DNA of 64,000 nt from an uncultured Desulfobacter sp. (GCA_963665095.1 OY762069.1:5824001-5888000); one strand, 5' to 3'; shown: positions 33,316 through 54,446, counted from the stretch's first letter. Numbers and translations: made by a program. Notes: generated by a model not told the origin, from the letters alone.

Positions 33316-34881
33316 ATGAAAAAAATAGGCTTATTCTTGGTAGCGGGAAACGTGCTGGGGGGATGTTCCACTTTTTTATATTTTAAATTCTTTCTGCCAT
33401 CAATCCAAAACAATCCAGCCATCCCAGGATATTATGATACAACGTTTTTTCTGGCTAGTATGGCCGTGTTGATCCTACTGGGGTTTTGCATTTTTAAGAG
33501 CAAATCGGGCAAAACCCTGTATGCGGTTGCACAAGGTCGGCGGGACATTTCTGAGTTTGATCCATCAGTAGTTCACCATCTTCAGCGAGAGGCTCTTCAA
33601 TATCCATTTGTCATTACGGTGATCTCTTTTCTGGGATGGAATCTGGCCGGTTTTACTTTCGGGTTTCTGCAACCCGTGATCACAGCAAAGATATTTAATC
33701 TGACCACACCGGGTCTGGTGATCTGCCTGAGGGAATTCTTAGGAATTATTCTTCTTGGCGGAGGGGTGACCTGCCTGGTCCTTTTTTTTGTTCTGGAGGA
33801 TGCCTGGCGTCCTTATATCCCCAAATTTTTTCCCCAGGGCAATTTAAACCAGGTCAAGCATGGGTTTAAAATCAGCGTTAGAAAAAGGTTTCTATTGGTT
33901 GCCCTGGGAATTATATTGATTCCACTTCCCATTATTGCCACCACCATTGTTATAAAAATTCAACAGCTTCACCTGGCCGATACGGCTGCCCGGAACGAGT
34001 TGATTTCTTCCCTTTATTGGGAGTTGTTTTTTATCTCCATAGATTCACTGACCATCGCATCGGTTTTGGCCTATCTCTTGGCAAAAAGTGTCTTAACTCC
34101 CCTGCTTCAGATAAAAAAGGCCATTAAAGTCGTTGAGCAGAATAACCTGGATTCCCAGATTAAAATCATGTCTAATGATGAGCTGGGGGATGTGGCCCAG
34201 GGGATAAATGATATGATTCTAAGCCTAAATGAAAGCCAGCGGGAAAGGAACTCCTTTAGCCGATACATGGGGGAGGAAATCCGTGATGAAATCATGTCCG
34301 GAAGAATCTCCATGGAGGGCGAGATGAAGAGGGTGACACTGCTTTTTTCCGATCTGAGGAATTTTACGGGGCTTGTGGAAAAAAATCATCCCCGACAGGT
34401 GGTAAAAATTTTAAATCAGTATTTTAATGAAATGACTCTGGCCGTTAAAGCACACAAGGGACTTATCCTTCAATATGTAGGAGATGAGATCGAGGCTGTT
34501 TTCGGGGCACCCGTGGGTTTTGAAGATCATCCGGAAATGGCGGTACAAGCGGCCCTGGAAATGAGAGAACGGCTGGCAAAATTAAACATGACTCTTGAAA
34601 AACAAGGGGTTGCTCCCCTGGAACACGGGATAGGTATCCATTCAGGAGCGGTGCTTGCCGGCAATATCGGTAGCCAGGAGAGAATGTCCTATGGCCTAGT
34701 CGGAGATACGGTGAATACCGCATCCCGCATTGAAGGACTGGCCAAAACATATGAGACGGACATCCTCCTGAGCCAAACCACTCAGAACTTGTTAACCAAC
34801 TCCTATGTCACCAAACAGTTGGATCCGGTCAAAGTAAAGGGAAAGGATGAAGGATTGATCATTTATAAGCTATTGTCCTGA
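33316..34881 (+). CDS. Membrane adenylate/guanylate cyclase with HAMP domain
   Basis: Multiple TMs, SNDELG HAMP, LLFSDLRNFT, YVGDEI, GDTVNTASRIE. Confidence 0.92.
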   Translation: MKKIGLFLVAGNVLGGCSTFLYFKFFLPSIQNNPAIPGYYDTTFFLASMAVLILLGFCIFKSKSGKTLYAVAQGRRDISEFDPSVVHHLQREALQYPFVITVISFLGWNLAGFTFGFLQPVITAKIFNLTTPGLVICLREFLGIILLGGGVTCLVLFFVLEDAWRPYIPKFFPQGNLNQVKHGFKISVRKRFLLVALGIILIPLPIIATTIVIKIQQLHLADTAARNELISSLYWELFFISIDSLTIASVLAYLLAKSVLTPLLQIKKAIKVVEQNNLDSQIKIMSNDELGDVAQGINDMILSLNESQRERNSFSRYMGEEIRDEIMSGRISMEGEMKRVTLLFSDLRNFTGLVEKNHPRQVVKILNQYFNEMTLAVKAHKGLILQYVGDEIEAVFGAPVGFEDHPEMAVQAALEMRERLAKLNMTLEKQGVAPLEHGIGIHSGAVLAGNIGSQERMSYGLVGDTVNTASRIEGLAKTYETDILLSQTTQNLLTNSYVTKQLDPVKVKGKDEGLIIYKLLS

Positions 34882-35057
34882 TTTCATATTTTTTGTCCTG
34901 CCTTCATCTATCTATTTCACCATTGATATATAATAATCAGCACATTCATTTCCAGGTAAGAAACCTTTGATCCAATATGTAACTTGGAGGGCAGGATGAC
35001 AACAGAGAGCATTGAGCAATCAGCATTTTCCGAAAAACTTGAGAATTTGAAGCCGGT
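34877..35057. repeat. 181-bp duplicate of the AraC/GRE divergent promoter and first GRE codons (37262-37442)
   Basis: Colinear near-identical sequence ending ...GAGAATTTGAAGCCGGT. Confidence 0.95.
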
Positions 35058-35122: not shown

Positions 35123-36201
35123 ATGAATATCCTGTTGCTCTACCCCAAGTTTCCCCCAAGTTCTGGTCCTTTGAAAAGACCATCGCCCTGAGGGGGAAAA
35201 AAGCCTTCATGCCCCCCTTGGGTCTGATCACCATTGCCGCCATGCTGCCCAAGGACTGGGCGGTCACCCAGGTGGACCGGAATATCAGGGAAGTCTCAAC
35301 GGAGGAGTGGGCCCGGGCCGATCTGGTCATGATCTCGGGGATGATTGCCCAGAGAGCGGATTTCACGGCACAGATCAAGGCAGCCAAGGCGTTTGGAAAG
35401 CCGGTGTTCGTCGGCGGTCCCTATGTCTCCTCTTCCCCGGAACGCTTTGAGGCGGCCGGTGCCGACTTCATTGTCAGGGACGAAGGAGAACTCACGATCC
35501 CCCTCCTGGTCCGGGCCCTCAGGCAGGGGCAAACCTCGGGACACTTCAGCGCGGACGGCGAAAAGCCGGACATGTCTCTGGCCCCGCTGCCCCGCTACGA
35601 CCTTCTGGACATGGATACCTATTCGGTCATGCCGGTCCAGTTCTCCAGAGGCTGCCCCTTCAATTGCGAGTTGTGAGATATTATCGTGCTCTACGGCCGG
35701 AAGGTCAGGACCAAATCCAACGCCCAGGTCCTGCCCGGCACCGCCCTTGAGAAACGCCTCCTGGCGGAAGGACGGATGTCGGACCGGTCCGGGGACATCA
35801 GTTATACCACCCTGACCAACTTTACGCCCTCCCGCCTGGTGGATGAAATCGCCAGGGAATTCATGGACGGTTTCTGGATGCTATACGACCCTGCCGCCTA
35901 CATCGACAGGGTATACCGCTGCTACAAAATTTTAGGAAAGGTGAAGTTCCCGCCGAAAAACCGTGAGCACCATAAAATCAAAGCCCAGGATATCAAAGCC
36001 ATGTTCATCCTCCTGTGGCACCTGGGCATCCGGTCCCCCTGCAGGAAGAAATTCTGGACGCGCCTTTTCGGCGTCCTTAAGGAAAATCCGGACGGGCTGG
36101 TCAGTTTTTTAAGTGTCCTGGCCCAGCTGGAACACTTCACGGCGTACCGACAGACCGTCAGGGATCAGATTCAGGCCCAGCTTTCCGGAATGACATCCTG
36201 A
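35123..36201 (+). pseudogene. B12-binding radical SAM protein (DUF4070-type), inactivated
   Basis: MNILLLYPKF then frameshift; MPPLGLITIAAMLP; SRGCPFNCEL* (third Cys lost); core deleted to VLPGTAL. Confidence 0.85.
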
Positions 36202-36228: not shown

Positions 36229-37272
36229 CTAATACTCTTTTCGACTGGCTTTTTCCCGGTAGTCTCTTGTCGTCATCCCTGTCCACTTTCTAAAAGCCGC
36301 TCTGAAGTTCGTGACTTCTGAAAAACCAATTCGATCTGCTATCTGTTCAATTGTAAGGGCGGTGTTTTCAATGTAGTGTTTTGCATATTCAGCCCGTGTC
36401 TCGTCAAGAACCTTCTGGAAGCTCGTATCCTGCTCCTTTAATTTCCGCCGCAGGGTCCTGCCGCTAACGCCGATTTGTCTGGCAACGTCCTCCAGTCTCC
36501 TATCCCTGAACGAAGAAGAAGTCACGATTGTCCGAATAGATTCAATGAGTTCATCCCTTCTTCCCCATTTATCCGCCAATTCCTCGCACCGCTGCATGCA
36601 AACCTCGGCCATCTGATCATGGCTCATTGATATGCGGATATTAAGCAGTTCTATGGGGAAAGAAACAGAATCAATGGTGCGGTCATAATATACCGGACAT
36701 TCGAACATTTCCCGGTACAGACGGCTGTATCCGGGTTTAGGATAGGAGAGATGGATTTCTGTCAAAGGAAGTTTGCCGCCGACAAGAAAACAGGTTGAAC
36801 TGTACCAGGTGGACAGCATTTCCTCTACAGCATATTTCCAAAGGAGCGGTTCTTTATACGGGTATGGCGGCAGGATTTCCCAGATTTGAATATCGCCCTC
36901 AGATTTTCGGATAATGTCTACCAGGCTTCCTGACACCTTCCAATACTGGACCGCAACATCCGCAGCTTCCTTGAGGGTATGGCTGCACATGATGGCATAC
37001 CCCCAAAAACCCAGTCCCGTTAAATTCTGTTCCCTGCCGATTCTGAGTCCAAGGGCCTCATCGGAGCTGAGAGTCAACCCGTTCTTTACGATTTTCAAGT
37101 AATCGGCAGGGGTGATAACGGCATCGGGGTTATGCAGCCATTTTTTGTCCAGGCGGACGCCGAGCAGTATTTTTTCTAGCGGAATTCCCCTCCTCGCCAG
37201 AGTTTTCACCAGCCACTGTGCCGCAGCGGCCGGGACAAATTTTTCCGATGCATGATTTTGGCCTGATTTCAT
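36229..37272 (-). CDS. AraC family regulator with long N-terminal effector domain
   Basis: LGFWGYAIMCSHTLKEA; GVSGRTLRRKL; IADRIGFSEVTNFRAAFRKWTG. Confidence 0.92.
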   Translation of the reverse strand: MKSGQNHASEKFVPAAAAQWLVKTLARRGIPLEKILLGVRLDKKWLHNPDAVITPADYLKIVKNGLTLSSDEALGLRIGREQNLTGLGFWGYAIMCSHTLKEAADVAVQYWKVSGSLVDIIRKSEGDIQIWEILPPYPYKEPLLWKYAVEEMLSTWYSSTCFLVGGKLPLTEIHLSYPKPGYSRLYREMFECPVYYDRTIDSVSFPIELLNIRISMSHDQMAEVCMQRCEELADKWGRRDELIESIRTIVTSSSFRDRRLEDVARQIGVSGRTLRRKLKEQDTSFQKVLDETRAEYAKHYIENTALTIEQIADRIGFSEVTNFRAAFRKWTGMTTRDYREKASRKEY

Positions 37273-37380
37273 ATCTTTTGTCCGGTCTTCATCTATCTAT
37301 TTCCCCATTGATATATAATAATCAGCACATTCATTTCCAGGTAAAAAACCTTTGATCCAATATTTAACTTGGAGGGCATA

Positions 37381-40300
37381 ATGACAACAGAGAGCATTGA
37401 GCAATCAGCATTTTCCGAAAAACTTGAGAATTTGAAGCCGGTCCGAAAGATGACGACTTTCGACCGCCTTGTGGGATATCCCCAAATGGCATCAGGCATT
37501 TCCCGGTATGTTTTCGGAAAAGTGCTTGGAAATGTGCAATGGCTATTGCTGGGTTTTCTTCGTTTTGTTGCTGCCAAATACAACTCCAGTGCGGTACTTC
37601 AAAAAGAACTAATGGGAACCCGGGGCTGGATTAATGCCGATGTCGTTTTTAAATCCATGGACGGCAACGTGGCGGTTGGCGTCCTGATTAAAGATGGAAC
37701 GATGGTAATTCAGGATTCGATATCGACCACTGCCGATGCAACATTCTGTTTTCAAACGGCCAATTGCATCATGAACTACCTCAACGCCGGCAAAAACCAA
37801 GCCAATGCCATGATGCTGGAAGGTCGGATGTGGATTCATGGCAATATGACCCTGGGCTATTATTTCTTTTACCTGCTAAATGTTGTCCTTTTAAAGGAGG
37901 AGTTTAAATCCCAGAAGCAGGCAATTGATGAAAATCGCAGTCTGGCCAGAAAAGCCGCGAAAGGGGTGTCGACGTGTGGAAGAGCTGAAAAGAAGAAACG
38001 GCGTTCCCAGCGGTTGAAAGCAGAGAAGAGAGACCCCGGCGTTAAATGGCTGAAGAATCCCTATCTGGAGGAATACGGTCTGGAGGATTTTCCACGGGTC
38101 GAAACATTTCGCGAGGAGTTGTTTCACACCAGAACAGAGTTGACGGCTGAGTACGGAAAGCTGTTGACCGATTTCTTTATTGAGAACGGATATGAAACTA
38201 AAAAATCAGGCGAAGAATGGGAGCCCAATCTGCGTAGAGCAGAAAGTTTCCATTACCTGATGTCTAACCGGCAGGCCCTGATTCGGAAAAACGATTTGCT
38301 GGCGGGAACCTATACCCCGAATCCGGTTTCCGGAACCGTAACCCACCCTCATACAATGGGCCATTTGATGTGGCCGGAGCTGAAAACAATAGACAAACGG
38401 GAACTCAGACCTCACCAGATAAGCGAGGAGACTGCGTGGGTCATGCACCACCACGTCCTGCCCTTCTGGGCGGACAGGAATTTGCTGCAATGGTGGAAAA
38501 AGGATTTCAACAACTCATTGCCGGCACAGATCCAGGACCGCTGGTTTGCGATCTTCTTCTGGAAATTCGTGTCTCAAAGCGAAATCAGTCCAGGATATGA
38601 CAATTTTATCCTCAAGGGCCTGAAAGGGATGGAAGCTACGATTGATGCTGAACTTAAAAACGATCCCAATGCCGATGAGGAGAAGGTCAACACCCTTAAC
38701 GCCATGAAAATCGGTCTGGATGCCGCGAGGGCCTATGCCCGCAACCTGGCACAGCAGGCTCGAAAAGAAGCGGCAACCGAATCGCATCCACAACGCAGGG
38801 TCGAACTGGAAGAGATGGCGGAAAGGCTTGAACATGTCCCTGAATATCCGGCTCGAACTTTGATTGAGGCTGTTCAAACCCTCTGGATTATGCATATTTG
38901 CCTGGGACTGGAAAACATGGACGACGGTCCCATGCTGGGAAGGCTCGATCAAATTCTGCAACCGTTCTTTGAGGCCGAGATGGAGCTGTTGAAAACGGAA
39001 AGCGAGAGGGAAGCCTATGTAAAAGATGTTATCGAGATTATGGGATGCCTCTTTTTCAGACTGGCCAGTCACTTGATTGCATCTCCGGAAATCGGAGAAT
39101 GGCAAAACTCAGGAGCCCCGCCGAACACGACCATTACGGTAGGGGGTGTTAAAAAGGACGGAACCGACGCCGTGAATGATATGTCCTATATCATCCTCAA
39201 GGTAATCGAAATGCTGGCCTTGCAGGACCCGAATTGTCATGCCCGTTATAAAATCGGTGTCAACAGCCGTGATTTTTTGAAGCGGGTTTGCGAAGTGAAC
39301 TACACCACCGGTGCAACACCCTGTATTCACAGTGATGAGGCCATGATCACTGCCTTGAGTGCTAACGCAAACTGGGCGTTGGAGGATATCCGCGGCTGGA
39401 CTCCCACCGGGTGTGTTGAGCCTTCCCTCCCGGGAAAGCACTGCTCTGCAACATCCTCACTGGAGGTCAACCTGATGGCGCCGTTTGAGATGGCGATGAA
39501 CAACGGGTATCATCCGCTGGTGAACTGGCGCCTTGGCCCGGAAACAGGGCGGATCGACAAAGGCGATTTCAGGTCCTTCGAGGATTTCTGGGCGGCCTTT
39601 GACAAACAGAGCTGTTTCATCATCGAGCAATCCGTTATCGGCAATAACGAGTTGGGGATCATCCACCAGAAACACATGCCGGCGCCTTTGCTGTCGGCTT
39701 CGATCAAGGGGTGTATAAAAACCGGCAGGGGGATGACCCGAGGGGGTGCGAAGTACAATTCCACCGGTGTTGCAATTATTGGGCTGGCAGACGTGGTGGA
39801 TTCCCTGATGGCCATCAGGACCTTGGTTTTTGATAAAAAGATCGTGACCTTCTCGGAGTTGAAGCAGGCAATCGATAGCAATTATGAAGGATTTGAAAAG
39901 ATTCATGCATTGGTGAAAAACAAGGTTTCCCGCTTCGGTTCCGGAAATCCAGAGGCAGTGGCCATGGCAAATCGGGTCACAAAAATGTGCAACGATTATT
40001 ACAGGAATCACAGAAACTACCGAGGTGGCCATTATGCAACCGGATGGTGGACCATGAATAATCATTCGGTTTACGGCAGGGTTTCCAGCGCCTCGCCTTC
40101 CGGCAGGCTCAAGGGAGAGCCTTTTACCCCGGGTTTAACACCCCATGCGAGTGCATCGAACAATATTCTGGACAATCTGCTGGATGTGGCCCAATTGGAT
40201 CCCACAACCCTGGACAATAATATCGCTTTTAACGTGCGAGTCGTCCCCTCGGCAAAAGACGCCTATGATCAGACGGTCAGCCGGATGGCGGATTACGTCC

Positions 40301-40494
40301 AGACCTACTTTGAAAAAGGGGGGATGCAGATCCAGTACAATGTGGTGGATACGGACACCCTGAAGGACGCCATGGCCAATCCGGAGCACTATGCTGATCT
40401 CCTTGTCAGGATTTCGGGTTACTGCGGCTATTTTGTCCAGTTGCAGCGCGACCTTCAGCTGGAGCTGATCCGTCGTAGCGAGTTTGGATTATAG
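37381..40494 (+). CDS. Glycyl radical enzyme (PFL2-like eliminase type) with N-terminal SCP2-like domain
   Basis: GRLDQ, TITVGG, Cys loop TGCVEP, glycyl motif LLVRISGY; about 230-aa N-terminal extension. Confidence 0.9.
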   Translation: MTTESIEQSAFSEKLENLKPVRKMTTFDRLVGYPQMASGISRYVFGKVLGNVQWLLLGFLRFVAAKYNSSAVLQKELMGTRGWINADVVFKSMDGNVAVGVLIKDGTMVIQDSISTTADATFCFQTANCIMNYLNAGKNQANAMMLEGRMWIHGNMTLGYYFFYLLNVVLLKEEFKSQKQAIDENRSLARKAAKGVSTCGRAEKKKRRSQRLKAEKRDPGVKWLKNPYLEEYGLEDFPRVETFREELFHTRTELTAEYGKLLTDFFIENGYETKKSGEEWEPNLRRAESFHYLMSNRQALIRKNDLLAGTYTPNPVSGTVTHPHTMGHLMWPELKTIDKRELRPHQISEETAWVMHHHVLPFWADRNLLQWWKKDFNNSLPAQIQDRWFAIFFWKFVSQSEISPGYDNFILKGLKGMEATIDAELKNDPNADEEKVNTLNAMKIGLDAARAYARNLAQQARKEAATESHPQRRVELEEMAERLEHVPEYPARTLIEAVQTLWIMHICLGLENMDDGPMLGRLDQILQPFFEAEMELLKTESEREAYVKDVIEIMGCLFFRLASHLIASPEIGEWQNSGAPPNTTITVGGVKKDGTDAVNDMSYIILKVIEMLALQDPNCHARYKIGVNSRDFLKRVCEVNYTTGATPCIHSDEAMITALSANANWALEDIRGWTPTGCVEPSLPGKHCSATSSLEVNLMAPFEMAMNNGYHPLVNWRLGPETGRIDKGDFRSFEDFWAAFDKQSCFIIEQSVIGNNELGIIHQKHMPAPLLSASIKGCIKTGRGMTRGGAKYNSTGVAIIGLADVVDSLMAIRTLVFDKKIVTFSELKQAIDSNYEGFEKIHALVKNKVSRFGSGNPEAVAMANRVTKMCNDYYRNHRNYRGGHYATGWWTMNNHSVYGRVSSASPSGRLKGEPFTPGLTPHASASNNILDNLLDVAQLDPTTLDNNIAFNVRVVPSAKDAYDQTVSRMADYVQTYFEKGGMQIQYNVVDTDTLKDAMANPEHYADLLVRISGYCGYFVQLQRDLQLELIRRSEFGL

Positions 40495-40498
40495 ACCG

Positions 40499-41422
40499 AT
40501 GAAGCGTCCCCTCATCATCGATATCAAAGGGCACAGCCTGGACGACGGGCCCGGGATTCGGTCGGTCGTCTTTATCAAGGGCTGCCCTCTGCGCTGCAGC
40601 TGGTGCCAGAACCCGGAGAGTCAAAGGACCACGGCAGAATTGTCCTGGGATCGGGAGAAATGCATCGGATGCGGCTCATGTGCACAAATCTGCCCGGAAC
40701 AGGCCATATCCGGGAACAATCCGTTTTTTATCGATCGGAAGGCCTGTTCCCTTTGCTTCGCCTGCGTGGAAACCTGCCCTGCCGACGCCTTGAGAGAGGT
40801 GGGAAAGGCAATGACCGTGGATGAAATTGTGGCAAAAGTGCTGCGCTACAGATCCTTTTTTGACACTTCGGGAGGCGGTGTCACCCTTTCCGGCGGAGAG
40901 CCGATCATGTTTATGGAATTTGCCGCCGCCCTCCTGAGGCGATTCAAGGAAGAGGGGCTGCACACTTTGCTTGAAACCTGCGGCCATTTTGACAGGGACA
41001 GCTTTGAAAACTTGATCTTTCCGTGGATCGATACCATCTACATGGACATCAAAATTGCGGACCGAAAAAAACATCAAGACCACTGCGGCATTTCCAACGA
41101 TTTGATATTGGAAAATTTTACATGGCTCTGTGGGCAAGCCGCCTCTGGAAAAGTGACGTTTCTACCACGAACGCCATTGATACCGGGGATTACGGACAGC
41201 GATGCCCAAATTGCGGAACTCGTCGGTCTTTACACCAGACACGGGGTTCAAAAGGCTTGCCTGCTGGGAAACAATCCGATCTGGATCGATAAATGTGACC
41301 AACTCGGCATTCCTGCCAAGCCGGGGCCTCTATCCAAGCTAAGAGAGTTTTACAGTTCGAAAAACTATGAAGCAATTCGATCGCTGTTCAAAAGAAACGG
41401 AATAACAATGGTTTCTTCCTGA
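40499..41422 (+). CDS. Glycyl radical activating enzyme with ferredoxin-like insert
   Basis: DGPGIRSVVFIKGCPLRCSWCQNPES; CIGCGSCAQIC and CSLCFACVETC; GGVTLSGGEP. Confidence 0.95.
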   Translation: MKRPLIIDIKGHSLDDGPGIRSVVFIKGCPLRCSWCQNPESQRTTAELSWDREKCIGCGSCAQICPEQAISGNNPFFIDRKACSLCFACVETCPADALREVGKAMTVDEIVAKVLRYRSFFDTSGGGVTLSGGEPIMFMEFAAALLRRFKEEGLHTLLETCGHFDRDSFENLIFPWIDTIYMDIKIADRKKHQDHCGISNDLILENFTWLCGQAASGKVTFLPRTPLIPGITDSDAQIAELVGLYTRHGVQKACLLGNNPIWIDKCDQLGIPAKPGPLSKLREFYSSKNYEAIRSLFKRNGITMVSS

Positions 41423-41458
41423 AGGACAGTCAAATCATGAAGGTGAAGAGGAGGCATC

Positions 41459-42847
41459 ATGATCACCCAAAGCCAGATCCACCACATCGTCGAGAACCAG
41501 CGCGCCTTTTTCAACGCCCATGCCACCCTGGGCCATGAGTTCAGGCTCAACGCCCTGAAAACCCTAAAGGATGGCGTTTGCCGCCATGAGCAACGCTTTC
41601 ATGACGCCCTCAAGGCCGATCTGGGCAAACCGGTCTATGAGTCCTTTATCACGGAAACCGGAATCATCCGCCATGACCTGACCCGAACCATGAAGTCCCT
41701 GAAGAAATGGATGGGCGTTAAATGGAAGATGACCCCCTTTTACCTTTTGCCCGGGATCAGCAAGGTACGCTACACCCCCCTGGGCGTAAACCTGATCATC
41801 GCGCCGTTCAACTATCCTATGCAGAGCACCTTTTCCCCGCTCATCGCAGCCATTGCCGCCGGCAACACCGCCGTGATCAAGACGTCGGAACTTACCCCCA
41901 ACGTGAGCCGGGTGATCCAGAATCTCATCGGCGACTGCTTCAGGCCCGAGCATGTGGCCTATGTGCCCGGTGAGGTGCCGGAAACCCAGATGCTCCTGAC
42001 CCAGAAATTCGACCATATCTTTTTTACGGGCTCCACCCGGGTGGGGGGAATTGTCCTTGAGGCCGCGGCCAGGCACCTGACGCCCGTGACCCTGGAACTG
42101 GGCGGCAAAAGCCCCTGCATCCTCCACAACGACGCCAACCTGGATACGGCGGTGCGGCGCATTGCCTACGGGAAGTTCCTCAATACGGGCCAGACCTGTG
42201 TGGCCCCGGATTATGTCCTGGTCCACCAGGATGCGGCGCAGCCCTTTATCGACAAGCTCAGGAAACGGATCCGAACCCTTTACGGAGACAACCCGTCCCA
42301 GAGCCCGGACTTCGGCCGCATCGTGAATGTGGCCCACCACCGCCGCCTGGTCTCCCTCATTGACCCGGAAAAGGTGGTCATCGGTGGGGACCATGACGAA
42401 GCATCCCTATACATCGGTCCCACGGTCATGACCAACGTGAGCCTGGATGATCCGGTGATGAAGGAGGAAATTTTCGGCCCGGTTCTGCCGGTGATGACCT
42501 TCCGAACCCTGGATCAGATCTACCAGACCATCGGGGCCCTGCCCCAGCATCCCCTGGCCCTCTACGTGTTCACCGAGAACCGGCAGATCCGGGATGAACT
42601 GGTCTCGCTGATCCCCTTTGGCGGGGGCTGCGTCAACCACTGCATCCAGCACCTGGCCAACCCCTACCTGCCCTTTGGCGGCCAGGGCGGCTCAGGCATG
42701 GGACATTACCACGGCTTTGACGGGTTCACGCAGTTTTCCCACAAAAAGGCCCTGTACCAGGCCCCCACCGCCTCCTGGCTGGACCTTCCCCTGATCTACC
42801 CGCCCTACAAGGGCAAACTCAAAATCATGAAGGCCATCTTCAGATAG
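41459..42847 (+). CDS. Aldehyde dehydrogenase, family 3-like
   Basis: PFNYP, FFTGST, TLELGGKSP, GKFLNTGQTCVAPDY, EEIFGP. Confidence 0.93.
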   Translation: MITQSQIHHIVENQRAFFNAHATLGHEFRLNALKTLKDGVCRHEQRFHDALKADLGKPVYESFITETGIIRHDLTRTMKSLKKWMGVKWKMTPFYLLPGISKVRYTPLGVNLIIAPFNYPMQSTFSPLIAAIAAGNTAVIKTSELTPNVSRVIQNLIGDCFRPEHVAYVPGEVPETQMLLTQKFDHIFFTGSTRVGGIVLEAAARHLTPVTLELGGKSPCILHNDANLDTAVRRIAYGKFLNTGQTCVAPDYVLVHQDAAQPFIDKLRKRIRTLYGDNPSQSPDFGRIVNVAHHRRLVSLIDPEKVVIGGDHDEASLYIGPTVMTNVSLDDPVMKEEIFGPVLPVMTFRTLDQIYQTIGALPQHPLALYVFTENRQIRDELVSLIPFGGGCVNHCIQHLANPYLPFGGQGGSGMGHYHGFDGFTQFSHKKALYQAPTASWLDLPLIYPPYKGKLKIMKAIFR

Positions 42848-43013
42848 CCAGGCTATCCCCCGGCCTCGGTAAGGTGGTTGTCCAAAGGGGGAATATTTTG
42901 GAGGGAAAGTCCTGTTATAACTCAGGGATGGATGGTGTGGGCCTGGGGTTGGGGCTCTCTGTTTCTAGGAGGTTTTTAAAGCTGTTTTGACATCCGTACT
43001 TTAGACGAACGTA

Positions 43014-47978: not shown

Positions 47979-49280
47979 TTATTGAACCGGCCATTCCAAT
48001 GTAAAACGGGCACCGCCCAGTGGTGAGGAACTTACCTTTGCACTTCCTTTATGCCACTGCATTATCCTTTTTACAATGGAGAGACCAAGCCCGTAACCGC
48101 CTGTCATACGACTTCTGCTGCCATCCAGCCTTACGAAAGGCTCAAAGATCTTCTCCCTTTTGTCTTCAGCAACACCCGGGCCGTCATCATCTATGTGCAC
48201 AACACAAAATTCATGGTGAAGCAGAACCGTGACTTCAATCTTTTCCTTTGAAAAACTCAACGCGTTTTGCACTAGATTCCCAACAGCCCTGGCCATTTGC
48301 TTGGGCTCATATTTGATGGGAGTTGATGCTGGATGAATATTGTACAAAAGCTCTATTGCAATGGTGGAGCCTTCAGGATTGTTTTCCCGGAGCAAATCTT
48401 TTAAAAAAGCATTGAGAGAAGCACAGACAAATGTCATCTCCGGCTTCTCCCTGTCAAACCGTGCATAGGTCAGCAATTCGCTGACCAGATCTTCGAGTTC
48501 CCCAATATCGGTGGCAAGCTCCATTTTATAACGGTCCTGCTTCTCTAAGCTTTCTGACCTGTGCAACATTTCCAGGCTGAATCGAAGCCTGGAAAGAGGC
48601 GTTCGCAACTCATGGGAAACTGCATTTGTTAATTCCTTATGCGAGTTGATCAATTGCTCTATGCGCTTGGCCATGGAATTGAACGACATTGAAACAGGAT
48701 ACAGGGAAGATCTTTTTGATATGTTTATACGCTCTGCCAGATTACCGCGGCCAAAGGCAGCTGTGCCTGCACCTATTTTTTTTACATTTCGCAGAAACGG
48801 CAACGTCCACAAAAAAGTGATCAAAGCAATGATAACAAGGGCGATTGCCCAAAAGACCAGGGCCAGATAGCCAAATTCCGGCTCTATTTCAGACAAAGGA
48901 CCGCTTTTCACAACAAAACCGCTGTTGCCTATCTGTTTGAACAAGAAGTCACCTTCCTCCACCACTGCTATTTCGCCATTTTTCAGCTCATCCACATGGT
49001 GATCGGCAATATCGAGATCTTCGAGTTTCAAAAGAGTCACCTGATACCCGAAGTTGGCCTGCAAATCTTTGAAGTGTTCCGGCCATTTTTCAATGGGCTG
49101 GTCGAGAAGCACCCGCTCCGTCAAATAATAGACTCCGCTGGCAAGCTCTTGGTTATATATTTTTATGCTTTCCTTGAAATGTCTTTTGATGAATTCTTGG
49201 AGAATGGGCATGGCCACAAACTGCAGTATCAAAAGAATAATAATGAAAAAAATGTAAGAATTTATAAACGCCCTCTTCAA
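47979..49280 (-). CDS. RstB-like sensor histidine kinase
   Basis: 2 TM, HAMP, AVSHELRTPLSRL, DDDGPG, GGYGLGL. Confidence 0.92.
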   Translation of the reverse strand: MKRAFINSYIFFIIILLILQFVAMPILQEFIKRHFKESIKIYNQELASGVYYLTERVLLDQPIEKWPEHFKDLQANFGYQVTLLKLEDLDIADHHVDELKNGEIAVVEEGDFLFKQIGNSGFVVKSGPLSEIEPEFGYLALVFWAIALVIIALITFLWTLPFLRNVKKIGAGTAAFGRGNLAERINISKRSSLYPVSMSFNSMAKRIEQLINSHKELTNAVSHELRTPLSRLRFSLEMLHRSESLEKQDRYKMELATDIGELEDLVSELLTYARFDREKPEMTFVCASLNAFLKDLLRENNPEGSTIAIELLYNIHPASTPIKYEPKQMARAVGNLVQNALSFSKEKIEVTVLLHHEFCVVHIDDDGPGVAEDKREKIFEPFVRLDGSRSRMTGGYGLGLSIVKRIMQWHKGSAKVSSSPLGGARFTLEWPVQ

Positions 49281-50041
49281 TCAACGTCTCCCCAGGCGTC
49301 ATCCACAAAAAGGTAGCCTTTCCCCCAAATGGTTTTTATTCTAAACGGCTTGGCGGAGTTATCACCTAATTTTTTTCGAAGACGGGATATGGAAATGTCA
49401 ATGGATCGATCCAATCCATCATAGGAGATCCCTTTTGTCTGGCGAAACAACGAATCCCGGTCTAAAATTTCACCTGAATTCACTGCAAGGTGCCACAAAA
49501 GTTCAAACTCATTGGTGGTAAGATCAATGGTTCTTTGATCCAAAGTTACCGTCTGGGAGGTTTTTTTAATGACCAGGGTTCCAAACTGCAGGGAATCGCC
49601 GCTACCCGTCTCTTTGGCCATCTCTTGACTGCCTGTGTTGAAACGCCTCAATAATGCCCGTATTCTGGCAAGAAGAACCCGGGGTTCAACCGGTTTTTTT
49701 ACATAATCATCTGCTCCGATTTCCAACCCCACAACCTGGTCCATATCATCTTCCCTGGCTGTAAGCATGAGAATCGGGCCGCTGTAATCCGGCCGAACCT
49801 CCCGGCAGACCTGGAAACCATCCATTCCAGGCAGCATAATGTCCAGGATAACAAGTGCAGGCAGATGGGTAATAATGGCCCTCTTCCCGGTATCACCTCT
49901 ATCCTCAACAAGTATCTCAAATCCTTGTTCGCTGAGATAGGCACTGATCAGTTTGGCCAGTCGCTCATCATCTTCCACGATCAATATGGTATGGGCTGAT
50001 TCCATGGATCTCCCCGCATCATCTATTTTCTGCCATTCCAT
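49277..50041 (-). CDS. RstA-like OmpR family response regulator
   Basis: ILIVEDD, LDIMLP, DYVKKP, YDGLDRSIDISISRLRKKLGD. Confidence 0.93.
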   Translation of the reverse strand: MEWQKIDDAGRSMESAHTILIVEDDERLAKLISAYLSEQGFEILVEDRGDTGKRAIITHLPALVILDIMLPGMDGFQVCREVRPDYSGPILMLTAREDDMDQVVGLEIGADDYVKKPVEPRVLLARIRALLRRFNTGSQEMAKETGSGDSLQFGTLVIKKTSQTVTLDQRTIDLTTNEFELLWHLAVNSGEILDRDSLFRQTKGISYDGLDRSIDISISRLRKKLGDNSAKPFRIKTIWGKGYLFVDDAWGDVD

Positions 50042-50113
50042 CTCCTATACCAAAAAAAGCCACCAGAGTATACACATCCCAATAGAACATGAACCTGCCC
50101 ATTGGTCCAGGAT

Positions 50114-50138
50114 AACAAATTATTACAATTTGAAACAA
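50114..50138 (+). promoter_or_regulatory. 10-bp-phased ACAA direct repeats, probable response regulator site
   Basis: AACAA/TACAA/AACAA at 50114, 50124, 50134. Confidence 0.55.
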
Positions 50139-50253
50139 AATGAGGACAGATTTATCAAATAAACAGCGCTATACATACCCTTAAGACTGCATCGGGGTGA
50201 ATACCGACCAGACCTTTTTACAAATAATATTAGCAATTAAAGGAGAGATGATC

Positions 50254-50907
50254 ATGAACATTGGGAAAAAAATGATTTACAGTTTTGCCATGCTGCTTTT
50301 CATGGGAACGACATACACCCAGGCCATGGCAGAAGATGCGCTGAAATATAAAAACTTTGCCCAGGTAAAACTGGGTTATTTTCAGCCCACAAGCGACATG
50401 GACGACGATGACTATGACCCGGGGGTTAACGGTTCCATAAGCTATAACAGGTACTTAACTAAAAATTTTATATTTGAAGTCGGGCTGACCGGATATGGAT
50501 CCGATGATACCAGGCGGGGTGTCAATGGAATCGCCGGCAGCTACAAGCAGGAGAATTGTTTAGCAGTAAGTGCCCTGGTAACCAATTTAAAAGGGGAAAT
50601 CGCAGTTGGTGACGCGGATCTTTATGCCGGAGCGGGCATAGGGTTATACACTGCCACCTTGTTCAGCGAGATTGAATCCTCAAGACTTGGCTCTTTTGAC
50701 AGAGATGAATCAGATACCGTAATGGGCGGACAATTTATTATCGGTGCCAGGTATAATATAACAAGCCGCTGGTTCGCAGGGGTTGAAGGCATATACAGAA
50801 TCACCGATAAAGTGGACATTGACAAGACGGTTATCGGGGTTCCGGTTGAGTATGCCGGGAACTTGAACGGATTTACAGTAACAGCAACCGCTGGTTTTCG
50901 TTTCTAA
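50254..50907 (+). CDS. Outer membrane beta-barrel protein (OmpA/OmpW-like)
   Basis: Signal peptide, YAGAGIG, C-terminal TAGFRF. Confidence 0.82.
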   Translation: MNIGKKMIYSFAMLLFMGTTYTQAMAEDALKYKNFAQVKLGYFQPTSDMDDDDYDPGVNGSISYNRYLTKNFIFEVGLTGYGSDDTRRGVNGIAGSYKQENCLAVSALVTNLKGEIAVGDADLYAGAGIGLYTATLFSEIESSRLGSFDRDESDTVMGGQFIIGARYNITSRWFAGVEGIYRITDKVDIDKTVIGVPVEYAGNLNGFTVTATAGFRF

Positions 50908-51146
50908 GCCCACACAGCATTAAGACCGGATCAGTAAAATTCATATGAAAGGGTGATCCGGTCTTCCTTAAAAAAACCATAGGCTTCCATTGGCTTGCCC
51001 TGAAGGTATATTCACGCCCGGGCATCTATGGAAGCTTTTTTACTGTGGCCCGGACAATTCATGCCCGGATATTTCACGAAGTTTTCTAGCTTCGGGGGCA
51101 GGGCACAGAGAGTGAAGCTGCCGCTGCTCCGCCGTGACCGGCCAGC

Positions 51147-51395
51147 TTAGTAAACCAATTGGGCATCAGAATCCAGGGCAAGCATGTTCAGGGTCCCGCC
51201 GGTGGTAATCTGGGCTCCGTCAATAAGATCCGATTCCTTAATATTGCGGTCTTCAATACACGGTTTGCATACCATCAGCTTTCCGCCCAGTTCCATATAA
51301 TCGGCAATGAGCTTAGTCAGCGGGGCAAAACCCCCTGTGGCGGGGACATGCTCGATATACCCCTTCTGGGCCAGGTACACGGCACTGCCCTGGAG
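51147..51395 (-). pseudogene. DsrE family protein C-terminal fragment
   Basis: LQGSAVYLAQKG...GGKLMVCKPCIEDRNI...LIDGAQI. Confidence 0.7.
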
Positions 51396-51399
51396 AGCA

Positions 51400-51575
51400 A
51401 CTGGTGAAATCCTTATTGTTCCGTATGTGGGTTTCCCGGATTCCCAAGCCCGCCAGGACTTTTCTGGGGATGTCGGATACACTGAGATACCGGCCGAAAA
51501 AGCAGGGGTCATGAAGGGTGACCTCAAGGCCGGCATTTTTAGATTCAAGGTTTAAGTATTCAAAATAGGGCGTTA
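51400..51575 (-). pseudogene. CCG-domain Fe-S oxidoreductase fragment
   Basis: VTLHDPCFFGRY...PRKVL...FTSC. Confidence 0.65.
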
Positions 51576-51577
51576 CC

Positions 51578-51830
51578 TCGAACCGGGATCCGCCTGTCTT
51601 GGGCAGGTATGGGTGCAAAGCCCGCAGTGCAGGCACTTCCACAGTTCATTGGCGTTGTCTAAGACGGCCTGCTTTGCTCCGATCTGGATATACCGGATCA
51701 TTCGTCTGGGAAAATTGTCGTTGACCAGGGGGCACACGGCGGCACAGGTGCCGCAGTTAAAACATTCCAGAGCGGTGTCCTGGCAATAGGGAGCCAGTTC
51801 CTGGGCAAAATCCAAATCAACACTTGTCAT
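51578..51830 (-). pseudogene. HdrC/QmoC-like 2x[4Fe-4S] protein fragment
   Basis: CFNCGTCAAVCP, LWKCLHCGLCTHTCPRQADP. Confidence 0.75.
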
Positions 51831-51929
51831 GTCACACCTTCACTTTTTCCCGGGGTTGATTATCATTCCCGGACCTATGAGTTTATAAGAAAGTCTGTCA
51901 AATAAAGACGACTTTCGATCTTTATAATA

Positions 51930-52119
51930 GATGGTAATGCAGCTTGCGCAGTCCAGGGGTGGGGAAAACTTTGGAAAGCCGGATCATCTTGCCGCCGATG
52001 GATGCATCTTATTCCACGATCGCAACCTTGTATCCCTGGTCGCCAAGATCCAGGGCCGTCTGAAGCCCTGCGATTCCTGGGCCCACCACAAGGGTGTCAA
52101 ATTGTTGAATGGGGAGCAT
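51930..52119 (-). pseudogene. HdrA-like flavoprotein N-terminal fragment
   Basis: LVVGPGIAGLQTALDLGDQGYKVAIVE*DASIGGKMIRLSKVFPT/LDCASCIT. Confidence 0.8.
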
Positions 52120-52219
52120 GGTTCCTCCTGATAACCGTCATGGACCGTCTTTGATTGTCCAGCCAGGTATTGGTCCATAACAAAAAATATACGTTCTTCC
52201 AGGATGTTAATAAGGATTT

Positions 52220-52372
52220 CATGTAAAATGTGGCTGCCGTCCGCCTCAAGAAATCCCATGTATTCGTGCCAACCTTGCCGGCCCAGGCAGGGATGTCCTT
52301 CCGGGTTCCCGAATCATTGGACAAAATTTCCAGAACCTGACTCACCTGGACCTTGCCGATGCCTTTATATTT
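52220..52372 (-). pseudogene. TusA family sulfurtransferase fragment
   Basis: VLEILSNDSGTRKDIPAWAGKVG/HEYMG. Confidence 0.7.
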
Positions 52373-52378
52373 GAGATT

Positions 52379-53719
52379 TCAGTCATTGTGCCCGAAATTC
52401 AGTATATTTCGGCCTGGGGCATTGTCCGCCTTCAGCCGGATGGTAAATTTAGCCCCGCCATGCAAGGATTTTGAAACTATAACATCCCCACCATGCCATT
52501 CCACGACTCTTTTGACAATGGCCAGGCCCATGCCATACCCCCCGGTGTCCCGGCTGCGGCTGGAATCCAGGCGGACAAAGGCGTCAAAGATTCGCTTGTA
52601 ATCGGATTTTGGAATGCCCGGTCCATCATCCTCCACATGGATCATGCAAACGCAGCCTGTTCTTTCAAACCTGATGTCCACCCGGGTTGCAGCGTATTTT
52701 ACTGCATTCTGGACAAGATTACTTAAGGCCCGGGACATATAGCGGGGTTCGGCCAATATCTTATATTCCTGATCCGGTTCCGGCACATGGCATTGGATTT
52801 GGATCTGGGCAGATGTCTTCCCTGTTTTCCGGGAAATATCTTCCATCCAGGGACCCACAGGCAGCTCAACCAGTTCCAGGCATGGTGTTTCCCGCTCAAA
52901 CCGCGCATAAATCAATAATTCGGACACCAATGTATCCAGTTCGTCAATATCCTTTTGAATTTCCAGGATATTTTGATTTCTTTCCTCTTCATCGTTGGCA
53001 GTCTCCAGCATTTCCATGCTGAACCGGATTCTTGAAATGGGCGTACGTAATTCATGGGAAACCGCGCTGGTAAGCTCTTTGTGGGATGCGATCAACTGCT
53101 GAATTCTTTGGGCCATATCATTAAAGGATCTGGCCAGGGGAAACAGTGCGGAGCGTTCGGATATTTCGGCCCGGGCACTGAAGTCTGCTTTACCGAACCT
53201 TTCAGCCGCCACACTGATACGCCGCAGCTTGAGCCAGAACGGCATAGACCAGAGCAGTGCCATTATAGCGAAATTGGCAGCCACCATGCCCCAGAACAAA
53301 ACTTCCACCCGCATGGGGGTTACAAATTCAGGGAAAGGCCCCATGGTAATCACCTGGTCGCTGGAACCGATACGCCGGTAATACAACTCCCCGTCTTTTT
53401 TGACAACCGTACCGCCCTGATTCAAAATATCCCGCTCTTTTTCCTTTAAAGCCAGGGAGTCCATGGGGTCAATTGACAATTGGTAACCAAACTGGGGCTG
53501 CCGGCGTTTTATATAATCGGTCCACTGGGCCCGGGGCAGAACTTCAATGTCCTCAAGCAGCATATTATAAATACCCTGGACAAGTGATCCGTAATACTCA
53601 TCAATCTCCCGGTCAAAAAATTCGTCCACTAACCGGAAGGTCAGCGGAGCAACCACAAACTGCCAGGTAACCACACTTGCCATGGTAAACAAAAAAAAAG
53701 ATAAAAAAATCCGTTTCAT
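52379..53719 (-). CDS. RstB-like sensor histidine kinase (second paralogue)
   Basis: AVSHELRTPISRI, EDDGPG, GGYGMGL. Confidence 0.92.
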   Translation of the reverse strand: MKRIFLSFFLFTMASVVTWQFVVAPLTFRLVDEFFDREIDEYYGSLVQGIYNMLLEDIEVLPRAQWTDYIKRRQPQFGYQLSIDPMDSLALKEKERDILNQGGTVVKKDGELYYRRIGSSDQVITMGPFPEFVTPMRVEVLFWGMVAANFAIMALLWSMPFWLKLRRISVAAERFGKADFSARAEISERSALFPLARSFNDMAQRIQQLIASHKELTSAVSHELRTPISRIRFSMEMLETANDEEERNQNILEIQKDIDELDTLVSELLIYARFERETPCLELVELPVGPWMEDISRKTGKTSAQIQIQCHVPEPDQEYKILAEPRYMSRALSNLVQNAVKYAATRVDIRFERTGCVCMIHVEDDGPGIPKSDYKRIFDAFVRLDSSRSRDTGGYGMGLAIVKRVVEWHGGDVIVSKSLHGGAKFTIRLKADNAPGRNILNFGHND

Positions 53720-53720
53720 T

Positions 53721-54446
53721 TCAATCCCAGGCATCCGGGACAAAAAGGTAACCTTTGCCCCAGATCGTTTTAATACGCATTGGCTTTTCAGGGTCATCGC
53801 TTAGCTTTTTACGCAGCCTTGAGACAGCCAGGTCAACGCTGCGGTCCAGGCCGTCATAATCAATGCCTTTGAATTTCTGGTAGATGGTATCCCTGTCAAG
53901 GATCTGCCCACTGTTTTGAGCCAGAAGCCAGAGCAGGTCAAATTCGCTGGTGGTCAATTCCACAGTCCTTCCTTCTAATTTAACCGTACGGGAGGACTGG
54001 ACAATGGTAAGGGTATTAAAAGTCAATTCCTCCGGGACTGCTGCTGCGGATCGTTCAACAGTCCTGGCCGGTTTTTCCCCAAGCCGTCGCATCAAGGCCC
54101 TGACGCGTGCCAGCAACACCCGGGGTTCAACTGGCTTTTTAACATAATCATCCGCCCCCATCTCAAGGCCGGCCACCTGGTCCATGTCATCCTCCCGGGC
54201 CGTGAGCATTAAAATGGGCCCCTGGTACCGGGACCGGACACTGCGGCACACTTCGAGACCATCCATGCCCGGCAGCATTAAATCCAGGATCACAAGATCC
54301 GGCACTTCTTTGATGATACGGTCAGGGGCTGTGTCTCCCCGCCTTTCAATAAGGACATCGAAACCATTACGACACAAATACTTGGCAACCAGATCCCCTA
54401 GGCGGTGGTCGTCTTCTACCAGCAAAATGGTTGTTTTTTCATCCAT
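53721..54446 (-). CDS. RstA-like response regulator (second paralogue)
   Basis: LLVEDD, LDLMLP, YDGLDRSVDLAVSRLRKKL. Confidence 0.93.
   Translation of the reverse strand: MDEKTTILLVEDDHRLGDLVAKYLCRNGFDVLIERRGDTAPDRIIKEVPDLVILDLMLPGMDGLEVCRSVRSRYQGPILMLTAREDDMDQVAGLEMGADDYVKKPVEPRVLLARVRALMRRLGEKPARTVERSAAAVPEELTFNTLTIVQSSRTVKLEGRTVELTTSEFDLLWLLAQNSGQILDRDTIYQKFKGIDYDGLDRSVDLAVSRLRKKLSDDPEKPMRIKTIWGKGYLFVPDAWD

Follow-up and report, generated by a model that had tools for sequence, protein, structure and literature searches.

An SCP2-fused glycyl radical enzyme from an AraC-linked cassette of an uncultured Desulfobacter, a candidate lipid eliminase

The enzyme and its closest described relatives

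Glycyl radical enzymes (GREs) depend on an activase that installs a glycyl radical; this radical forms a Cys thiyl radical, and the chemistry of enzymes with a Cys-X-Glu (CXE) loop is established, as described in the part of a 2026 superfamily review available here (PMC13450708). In that part the substrates given for eliminases and isomerases are all small and polar, and CutC is the only C-N 1,2-eliminase; the review text, searched as a whole, contains none of the terms 'sterol', 'SCP2', 'sphing' or 'fusion'. Here, a GRE of 1037 aa is described from a 64,000-nucleotide stretch of DNA of an uncultured Desulfobacter sp. (GCA_963665095.1 OY762069.1:5824001-5888000; hereafter the window), where it is encoded at 37381..40494 (+) in a cassette with an AraC-family regulator, an activase and an aldehyde dehydrogenase (ALDH). 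The protein carries an N-terminal domain of predicted SCP2 fold and belongs to a real, uncharacterised GRE family, of which it represents the rarer, acidic-pocket clade. We consider it probable that the enzyme is a lipid eliminase of some kind. Family members are annotated as formate acetyltransferase, and neither the family nor a GRE for such a substrate class was found in the published literature, supplements and most subscription papers lying beyond that search.

Matches to PF02901 and PF01228 (PFL-like and Gly_radical) place the protein in the superfamily, and both the 10-stranded barrel with the Cys loop (catalytic part, residues ~236-1037) and the C-terminal Gly loop are present. The motifs TGCVEP and RISGY, noted in an initial annotation of the window, begin at residues 676 and 1010. 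Cys678 and Gly1013 were invariant in 95/95 family sequences, and the Cys and Glu of the C678-V679-E680 loop were kept in all 214 family sequences of the tree described below. The structure was predicted with a pLDDT of 92.8 and a pTM of 0.92; sequence alignment assigns Glu401, Asp514, Asp515, Thr691 and Glu695 to the pocket.

The best solved relatives in a PDB search were HypD, CutC, HpyG, HpzG and the B12-independent glycerol and 1,2-propanediol dehydratases (GD and PD), with scores of 358, 328 and 317 bits for HypD, HpyG and HpzG. For these relatives Foldseek gave a structural identity of 24-29% and a target TM of up to 0.95; the closest structures were eliminases (target TM 0.92-0.95), PD and GD being among the top matches. 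Identity to solved GREs was 20-29%, and every NCBIfam equivalog cut-off was missed by a wide margin: 353.6 bits against 1050 for CutC (TIGR04394), 430 against 1100 for HypD (NF043068), and 343, 320, 255 and 203 bits for the HpsG/HpfG, IAD and HPAD models (cut-offs 1000-1150; IAD 1100, HPAD 1150). The GRE thus does not cluster tightly with any characterised class, in line with the initial annotation. The pyruvate formate-lyase model was likewise missed (TIGR01255, 120 bits against 994), and the Cys-Cys pair that had been noted for that enzyme is replaced by G677-C678.

CutC (5FAU, 5A0U) shares with the window GRE the barrel fold (target TM 0.92-0.93), the GCVEP loop, an activase of its own and, under our proposal, an aldehyde product; Thr is common to both at position 691, and Glu401 aligns with the Asp of the CutC motif 'DTCPGY', presumably Asp216 (number from the chain offset). 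CutC differs in its identity of 24-26%, in lacking the extra 235-residue N-terminus with SCP2, in pocket residues replaced here by Asp514/Asp515/Glu695 and Trp574/Asn576, and in that the window operon has no microcompartment genes. HypD, HpyG and HpzG (6VXC, 8ID1, 8IOF) are the best sequence matches. Glu401 aligns with a Glu of HpyG and HpzG, and Asp515 with HypD Asp278, which contacts the amino group at 3.1 Å (PMC7077986); the position of HypD His160 is a Glu in the window GRE, the alignment being gapped there. These enzymes are nevertheless only 26-29% identical and lack SCP2, and the window has no proline-pathway neighbours. GD and PD (1R8W, 5I2G, 9RCO) took the highest Foldseek ranks (TM 0.92-0.95) and share the CXE loop, but are 26-28% identical and without the SCP2 fusion. 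In sequence alignment residue 401 corresponds to His164 of GD (1R8W), described in the accessible part of the review as the acid protonating the leaving hydroxyl (PMC13450708); this residue is Glu in the window GRE and His only in a sister clade.

Two further systems resemble the locus in design. The alkylsulfatases SdsA1, SdsAP and YjcS join an enzyme to an SCP2-like domain (PMC5426288, seen in part), an analogy of design only, since they are hydrolases with a C-terminal fusion and an unrelated catalytic domain. In Pseudomonas, a divergent AraC-family regulator, SphR, binds sphingosine (PMC3900636), and the sphBCD genes remove inhibitory sphingoid bases (PMC11893366), as far as the available text of these two papers goes. 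That system uses a periplasmic oxidase and a cytochrome and no radical enzyme, and the comparison of its regulator with that of the window is one of gene layout.

The SCP2 fusion and the two clades of the family

Residues 50-180 (37528..37920, +) matched the SCP2 fold in all of the top 10 structural matches, the best being lipid carriers and an alkylsulfatase-type domain. PF02036 scored 16.1 bits on the GRE, under the Pfam gathering score of 21.3; the model was matched at E<=0.01 by 32/94 family N-domains, and a stand-alone homologue in locus L109 reached 22 bits, above the cut-off. The domain was fused in 190/214 family sequences of the tree vs 0/18 outside the family, the remaining 24 being apparently truncated or split forms; in split loci SCP2 is a separate gene adjoining the GRE. 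Fusion to a true SCP2 fold, as read from the sequence at the outset, is supported by the structural matches, the family N-domains and the stand-alone homologue. Split loci with GRE, SCP2 and activase genes (L109-L115, L162-L170) recurred beside a metallophosphoesterase, a DUF6765 protein and a 416-aa protein. Elsewhere in the host genome (G000:C1:6324870-6328560, -) a TetR gene, a stand-alone SCP2-like gene, a non-family GRE and an activase stand together. In this second pairing the TetR is 57% identical to that of the SCP2-GRE family, and the GRE has the diol-dehydratase-like motifs GHTQG, NGHS, GCVE..GWHDSA and VYSVSAN, which make it a candidate long-chain 1,2-diol dehydratase.

A FastTree phylogeny was built from 232 sequences and 800 columns of the catalytic core. 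One family comprised 214 of them (support 0.997), divided into the clade of the window GRE (99 sequences, support 1.0) and a sister clade of the other 115, which sits beside TetR and SDR (short-chain dehydrogenase/reductase) genes. The window's clade has an acidic pocket, with Asp514 in 99/99, Asp/Glu515 in 96/99, Asp/Glu695 in 89/99 and Trp574 in 95/99, and with His401 in none. In the sister clade (hereafter the His clade), His401 was found in 111/115, Asn514 in 111/115 and Phe576 in 113/115. Tandem or clustered paralogous SCP2-GREs with differing pocket signatures, often with a single shared activase, occurred in L036, L037, L054, L082, L085, L144 and L182.

The family numbered 123 proteins at E<=1e-20 with the window GRE as query; when a sister-clade member was the query, E<=1e-200 was reached by 786 or more clustered proteins. 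It was present in 44/401 genomes of the phylum, in 57/301 genomes of the order (sulfate reducers) and in 0/7 other genomes of the host's family; beyond these, it was found in 12/201 genomes of another order, in 3/201 of the class reached via a Dehalococcoidia locus and in 4/95 of a further class.

The proposed reaction and its rivals

As the best explanation, though one held tentatively and at somewhat less than even confidence, we propose that the GRE is a choline-lyase-like 1,2-eliminase whose substrate is a long-chain amino alcohol, for instance a sphingoid base or a comparable cationic amphiphile; an amine (or water) would be lost without oxygen, leaving an aldehyde. An amine substrate is suggested by the acid at position 401, as in CutC, HpyG and HpzG, and by the equivalence of Asp515 and HypD Asp278. 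All three solved enzymes in which an acid was seen at 401 (CutC, HpyG, HpzG) bind an ammonium substrate, in a tally that covers these three entries, residue 401 of the remaining solved entries lying outside it. The sequence shows no damage to the activase, to Gly1013, Cys678 or Glu680, or to the SCP2 domain. SCP2 would hold or deliver the hydrocarbon tail; as in CutC chemistry, the thiyl radical would then take H from the CH2OH carbon while Glu680 deprotonates the hydroxyl, and the adjacent C-N bond would break, the ammonium being held by Glu401, Asp514, Asp515 and Glu695. Sphinganine would yield 3-hydroxyoctadecanal and NH3. The ALDH may oxidise the aldehyde to the acid, for beta-oxidation or for detoxification of the amphiphile, and the AraC-family regulator may sense the substrate. 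A mobile four-gene cassette would fit a detoxifying role, as sphingoid bases inhibit growth (PMC11893366, in the part available).

Neighbours were counted at 191 family GRE genes of >=400 aa, assigned to clades by profiles, with five genes on each side and the window left out; the loci are not independent (close pairs L005/L010, L006/L176 and L003/L004) and many contigs are short. The 26 acidic-clade loci had ALDH 6 times, AraC 4, DUF4070 radical SAM 3, TetR 1 and KDSR-type SDR 0, vs ALDH 1, AraC 1, radical SAM 1, TetR 77, SDR 30, epimerase-like 17, Zn-ADH 7 and AFOR 2 at the other 165. The six ALDHs, of three types, comprise a family-3 enzyme after the activase (L001); a distant family-3-like enzyme on the opposite strand, 31% identical to the window ALDH (L006, L176); a PRK09407-like enzyme after the activase (L014); and a betaine-aldehyde-dehydrogenase-like enzyme (L005, L010). 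Counted as independent events they come to about four, a pattern in keeping with an aldehyde product but not with an operon of fixed composition. The linkage to ALDH and lipid catabolism expected from the initial annotation thus held in part: ALDH was enriched in the clade and lipid-type neighbours occurred family-wide, but the family-3 ALDH was not conserved as a partner: the window and L001 were the only places where it was seen directly after the activase, and ALDHs in other clade members were of other subfamilies. The window ALDH itself was correctly assigned, its best solved relatives being of family 3 (445 bits for 6K0Z and 351-370 bits for fatty aldehyde and class 3 dehydrogenases).

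Co-occurrence was assessed in 35 of the 42 genomes of the order with a full-length-type match (7, mostly repeated genera, were left out, and 14 split-type genomes lay outside the set), in 36 of 244 genomes without a match (about one per family, on average smaller) and in 9 genomes of the acidic clade, including the host. The SDR profile A3 was matched in 25/35 vs 0/36 and 3/9 acidic-clade genomes, a result that is partly circular, as the profile was built from GRE-adjacent SDRs. Ceramidase PF04734 was found in 12/35 GRE-positive (6/35 above 350 bits) vs 0/36 GRE-negative genomes, with lipase 3 as control in 4/35 vs 4/36, and FadL in 28/35 vs 11/36. These enrichments suggest that His-clade hosts use hydrophobic substrates and hint at sphingolipids. 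Kinship and lifestyle inflate the contrasts, and the FadL enrichment means that lifestyle can explain part of the sphingolipid signal. The host genome has beta-oxidation homologues.

Several results weigh against a sphingoid-base substrate. What points to sphingolipids was seen in the sister clade, which has a different pocket from the window GRE. Among the 9 acidic-clade genomes PF04734 was absent, the host included, and FadL was present in 5/9; no match to FadL, to a KDSR-type SDR or to an AGMO (alkylglycerol monooxygenase)-like gene was found in the host genome. The KDSR label of the sister-clade SDRs, like the motif likeness behind it, is tentative, and with the L052 SDR as query TSC10 (8JAT) ranked 17th of 99 in the PDB search, although with the longest span (5-238); it was not among the 22 matches of profile A3 at 1e-40. 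Glu401 was present in only 39/99 acidic-clade members (Pro in 31, Gln in 11), which weakens the amine reading of a pocket defined by sequence alignments. No ALDH lies near 20 of the 26 acidic-clade GREs, and in L002, 90% identical to the window cassette, an insertion sequence (IS) follows the activase in place of an ALDH. SCP2-like folds also occur in Eis/GNAT acetyltransferases. Finally, CXE had been taken as the mark of eliminases, but decarboxylases and isomerases have it as well: it is present in HPAD (Cys503/Glu505), IAD (Glu502), HplG, YbiW and PflD in the part seen of the review (PMC13450708), so that the motif narrows the reaction without fixing it.

A possible but less favoured explanation is a C-O eliminase on a neutral lipid, with the carboxylates acting as acid in place of His. 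It would cleave 1-O-alkylglycerol to fatty alcohol and hydroxyacetone, dehydrate it to 3-alkoxypropanal, or remove water from a vicinal diol with a long chain. The place of PD and GD among the top Foldseek matches agrees with this. An FA_hydroxylase gene directly follows the His-clade GRE in L044 (9178-10329) and L018 (2449-3525); its product resembles AGMO, and the two genes are a possible anaerobic/aerobic ether-cleaving pair. A 1445-aa BcrAD_BadFG/DUF2229/HGD-D protein, which we take to be PlsA/Ger-like, follows the GRE in L038, and AFOR, Zn-ADH, ECH, ACAD and acyl-CoA ligase genes recur near His-clade GREs, which also have amidase and transketolase neighbours. YbiW and PflD cleave C-O ethers with CXE (PMC13450708), and HypD Asp278 has been proposed as the acid for the hydroxyl (PMC7077986), both in the portions seen. 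However, these lipid-type neighbours belong to the His clade and not to that of the window, and none of the 99 acidic-clade members has the His with which GD protonates the departing hydroxyl.

Elimination on a hydrophobic aromatic is unlikely; the substrate would be an arylglycerol, a beta-aryl ether or an aryl amino alcohol, from which the ALDH would receive an aromatic aldehyde. The best NCBIfam model of the ALDH is the benzaldehyde dehydrogenase MdlD (413 bits, cut-off 550), and the gene order of L176, with class III CoA-transferases, a phosphotriesterase-family gene and the divergent family-3-like ALDH, would suit such a substrate. C-alpha-dehydrogenase was the best single-domain PDB match of the SDR profile, but its 159 bits do not separate it from FabG (158 bits), and no aromatic-degradation genes recurred in the neighbour clusters.

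Slightly less likely again is a conventional eliminase or isomerase for a small polar compound, with SCP2 as a structural element or membrane anchor. All characterised CXE enzymes described in the available part of the review take such substrates (PMC13450708), amine-related neighbours occur at acidic-clade loci (opine dehydrogenase in L009/L105; EamA, MFS and GPH transporters in L005/L010), and SCP2-like folds are known in non-lipid enzymes. Against this, SCP2 is retained throughout the family, either fused or encoded next to the GRE, and stands also before the non-family GRE of the host, and its best fold matches are the lipid carriers and alkylsulfatase-type domain.

We regard it as improbable that the GRE works with a B12-binding radical SAM enzyme (DUF4070) to make or tailor lipids of the cell itself. 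In favour of this, the radical SAM gene lies near 3/26 clade GREs vs 1/165 and is preceded in the window and L001 by a duplicate of the cassette control region, and Desulfobacterota are candidate 1-deoxyceramide producers (PMC11334938, seen in part). Against it, the radical SAM gene of the window is broken while the four cassette genes are intact, a patchy, regulator-linked distribution fits catabolism, and squalene-hopene cyclase was found in 1 of 80 genomes tested (0/35, 0/36 and 1/9 acidic-clade genomes) and not in the host. It is very improbable that the GRE adds fumarate to, or decarboxylates, a hydrocarbon or fatty acid: HPAD and IAD have CXE (PMC13450708, in part), single-Cys GREs of sediment archaea are labelled Ass/Bss (PMC8163825, in part) and family member P0122 is from an alkane degrader genus, but MasD, BssA and HPAD were the lowest-ranked PDB matches (192, 164 and 127 bits vs 358 for HypD; 20% identity to BssA and MasD), the cut-offs of the IAD and HPAD models were far from reached, and the GRE-activase-ALDH operon, where small subunits had been noted as absent, has no room for small Fe-S subunit genes, other parts of the genome not having been searched.

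The cassette, its surroundings and significance

The four open reading frames are all open, in the order and positions first described, as an intact cluster between decayed flanks, where the B12 radical SAM gene is broken and only fragments remain of a resolvase and a DUF4158 gene. The regulator (36229..37272, -; 347 aa; Arabinose_bd and HTH_18) is divergent from the GRE and of QhpR/CypR/GliR type, although under all NCBIfam cut-offs (QhpR 157 bits/250, CypR 138/500, GliR 128/570). In the shared control region (37273..37380), which has a similar counterpart in L001 and L002, GGAGG lies at 37371-37375 ahead of the GRE ATG; this start gives 1037 aa, an upstream TTG would give 1041 aa. No convincing sigma-70 promoter was seen on the + strand of 37273..37380. 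The activase (40484..41422, +) overlaps the GRE stop and is a radical SAM protein with CxxxCxxC at residue 34 and a ferredoxin insert; at 274 bits it exceeds the TIGR02494 cut-off of 174, which bears out its first assignment. The ALDH (41459..42847, +; 462 aa; Aldedh) has ELGGKSP (Glu213) and GQTCVAPD (Cys247), and gaps between the three genes are <=36 bp. A terminator-like hairpin 3' of the ALDH (42939..42957, +) is a consensus match only, with 5 found vs 11 expected in shuffles.

A 185-bp copy, 95% identical, of the control region and GRE 5' end lies at 34873..35057 (+), before the radical SAM gene; L001 also has such a copy (290 bp). This gene (35123..36201, +) is of the DUF4070 type and is broken by an early frameshift, a stop inside its CxxxCxxC motif and the loss of ~450 bp. 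It is intact in L001 (copy and gene at L001:4836-6765) and in L014 stands in line after GRE, activase and ALDH (L014:3882-5426), which makes it a possible fifth cassette component. At the DNA level the cassette shares 94% identity with L001, from a Desulfobacter metagenome-assembled genome (MAG), and 90% with L002, from a Desulfarculus MAG. The other few genes common to the host and the genome of L001 are only 71-80% identical, so that recent transfer of the cassette is likely, judged from these identities. Further out in the window, 5872-33300 and 47979-53797 hold many sensor kinases, FIST and PAS proteins and mobile-element remnants.

Other family loci showed further arrangements. In L124, L133 and L137-L140, a single protein of 614-673 aa beside the His-clade GRE combines the epimerase-like SDR with the KDSR-type one. 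About 20 kb from the L001 cassette (G692; L192:10856-13999, L194:1622-6438) are TetR, two-subunit transketolase, DUF362 and KDSR-type SDR genes, with a 258-aa protein that is SCP2-like by eye and has no Pfam match; transketolase also follows His-clade GREs in L091/L100. L176:4317-16313 (G688) holds an acidic-clade GRE and, after it, activase, two class III CoA-transferases, a phosphotriesterase-family gene and a GPH symporter, and the contig also carries histone-deacetylase-family genes and a second paralogue.

That the whole SCP2-GRE family forms an oxygen-free route of sphingoid-base breakdown in sediments and digesters is a doubtful extension of the proposal. In such a route, His-clade GREs would dehydrate phytosphingosine-type 3,4-diols to 3-keto bases, to be reduced by the adjacent KDSR-like and epimerase-like reductases, and the acidic clade would act as a radical sphinganine ammonia-lyase, giving a 3-hydroxy fatty aldehyde with no need for the kinase and the PLP lyase that eukaryotes use. 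The split into two clades narrows the substrates to a short panel that can be tested and points to particular residues for mutation. Anoxic waters are rich in sphingolipids, according to the part available of one study (PMC11334938). If the extended proposal is true, the acidic-clade enzyme would be the first GRE eliminase known to act on lipids and, next to CutC, the second C-N 1,2-eliminase. The family could explain how the backbones of amino-, ether- or polyol-lipids are opened under anoxic conditions.

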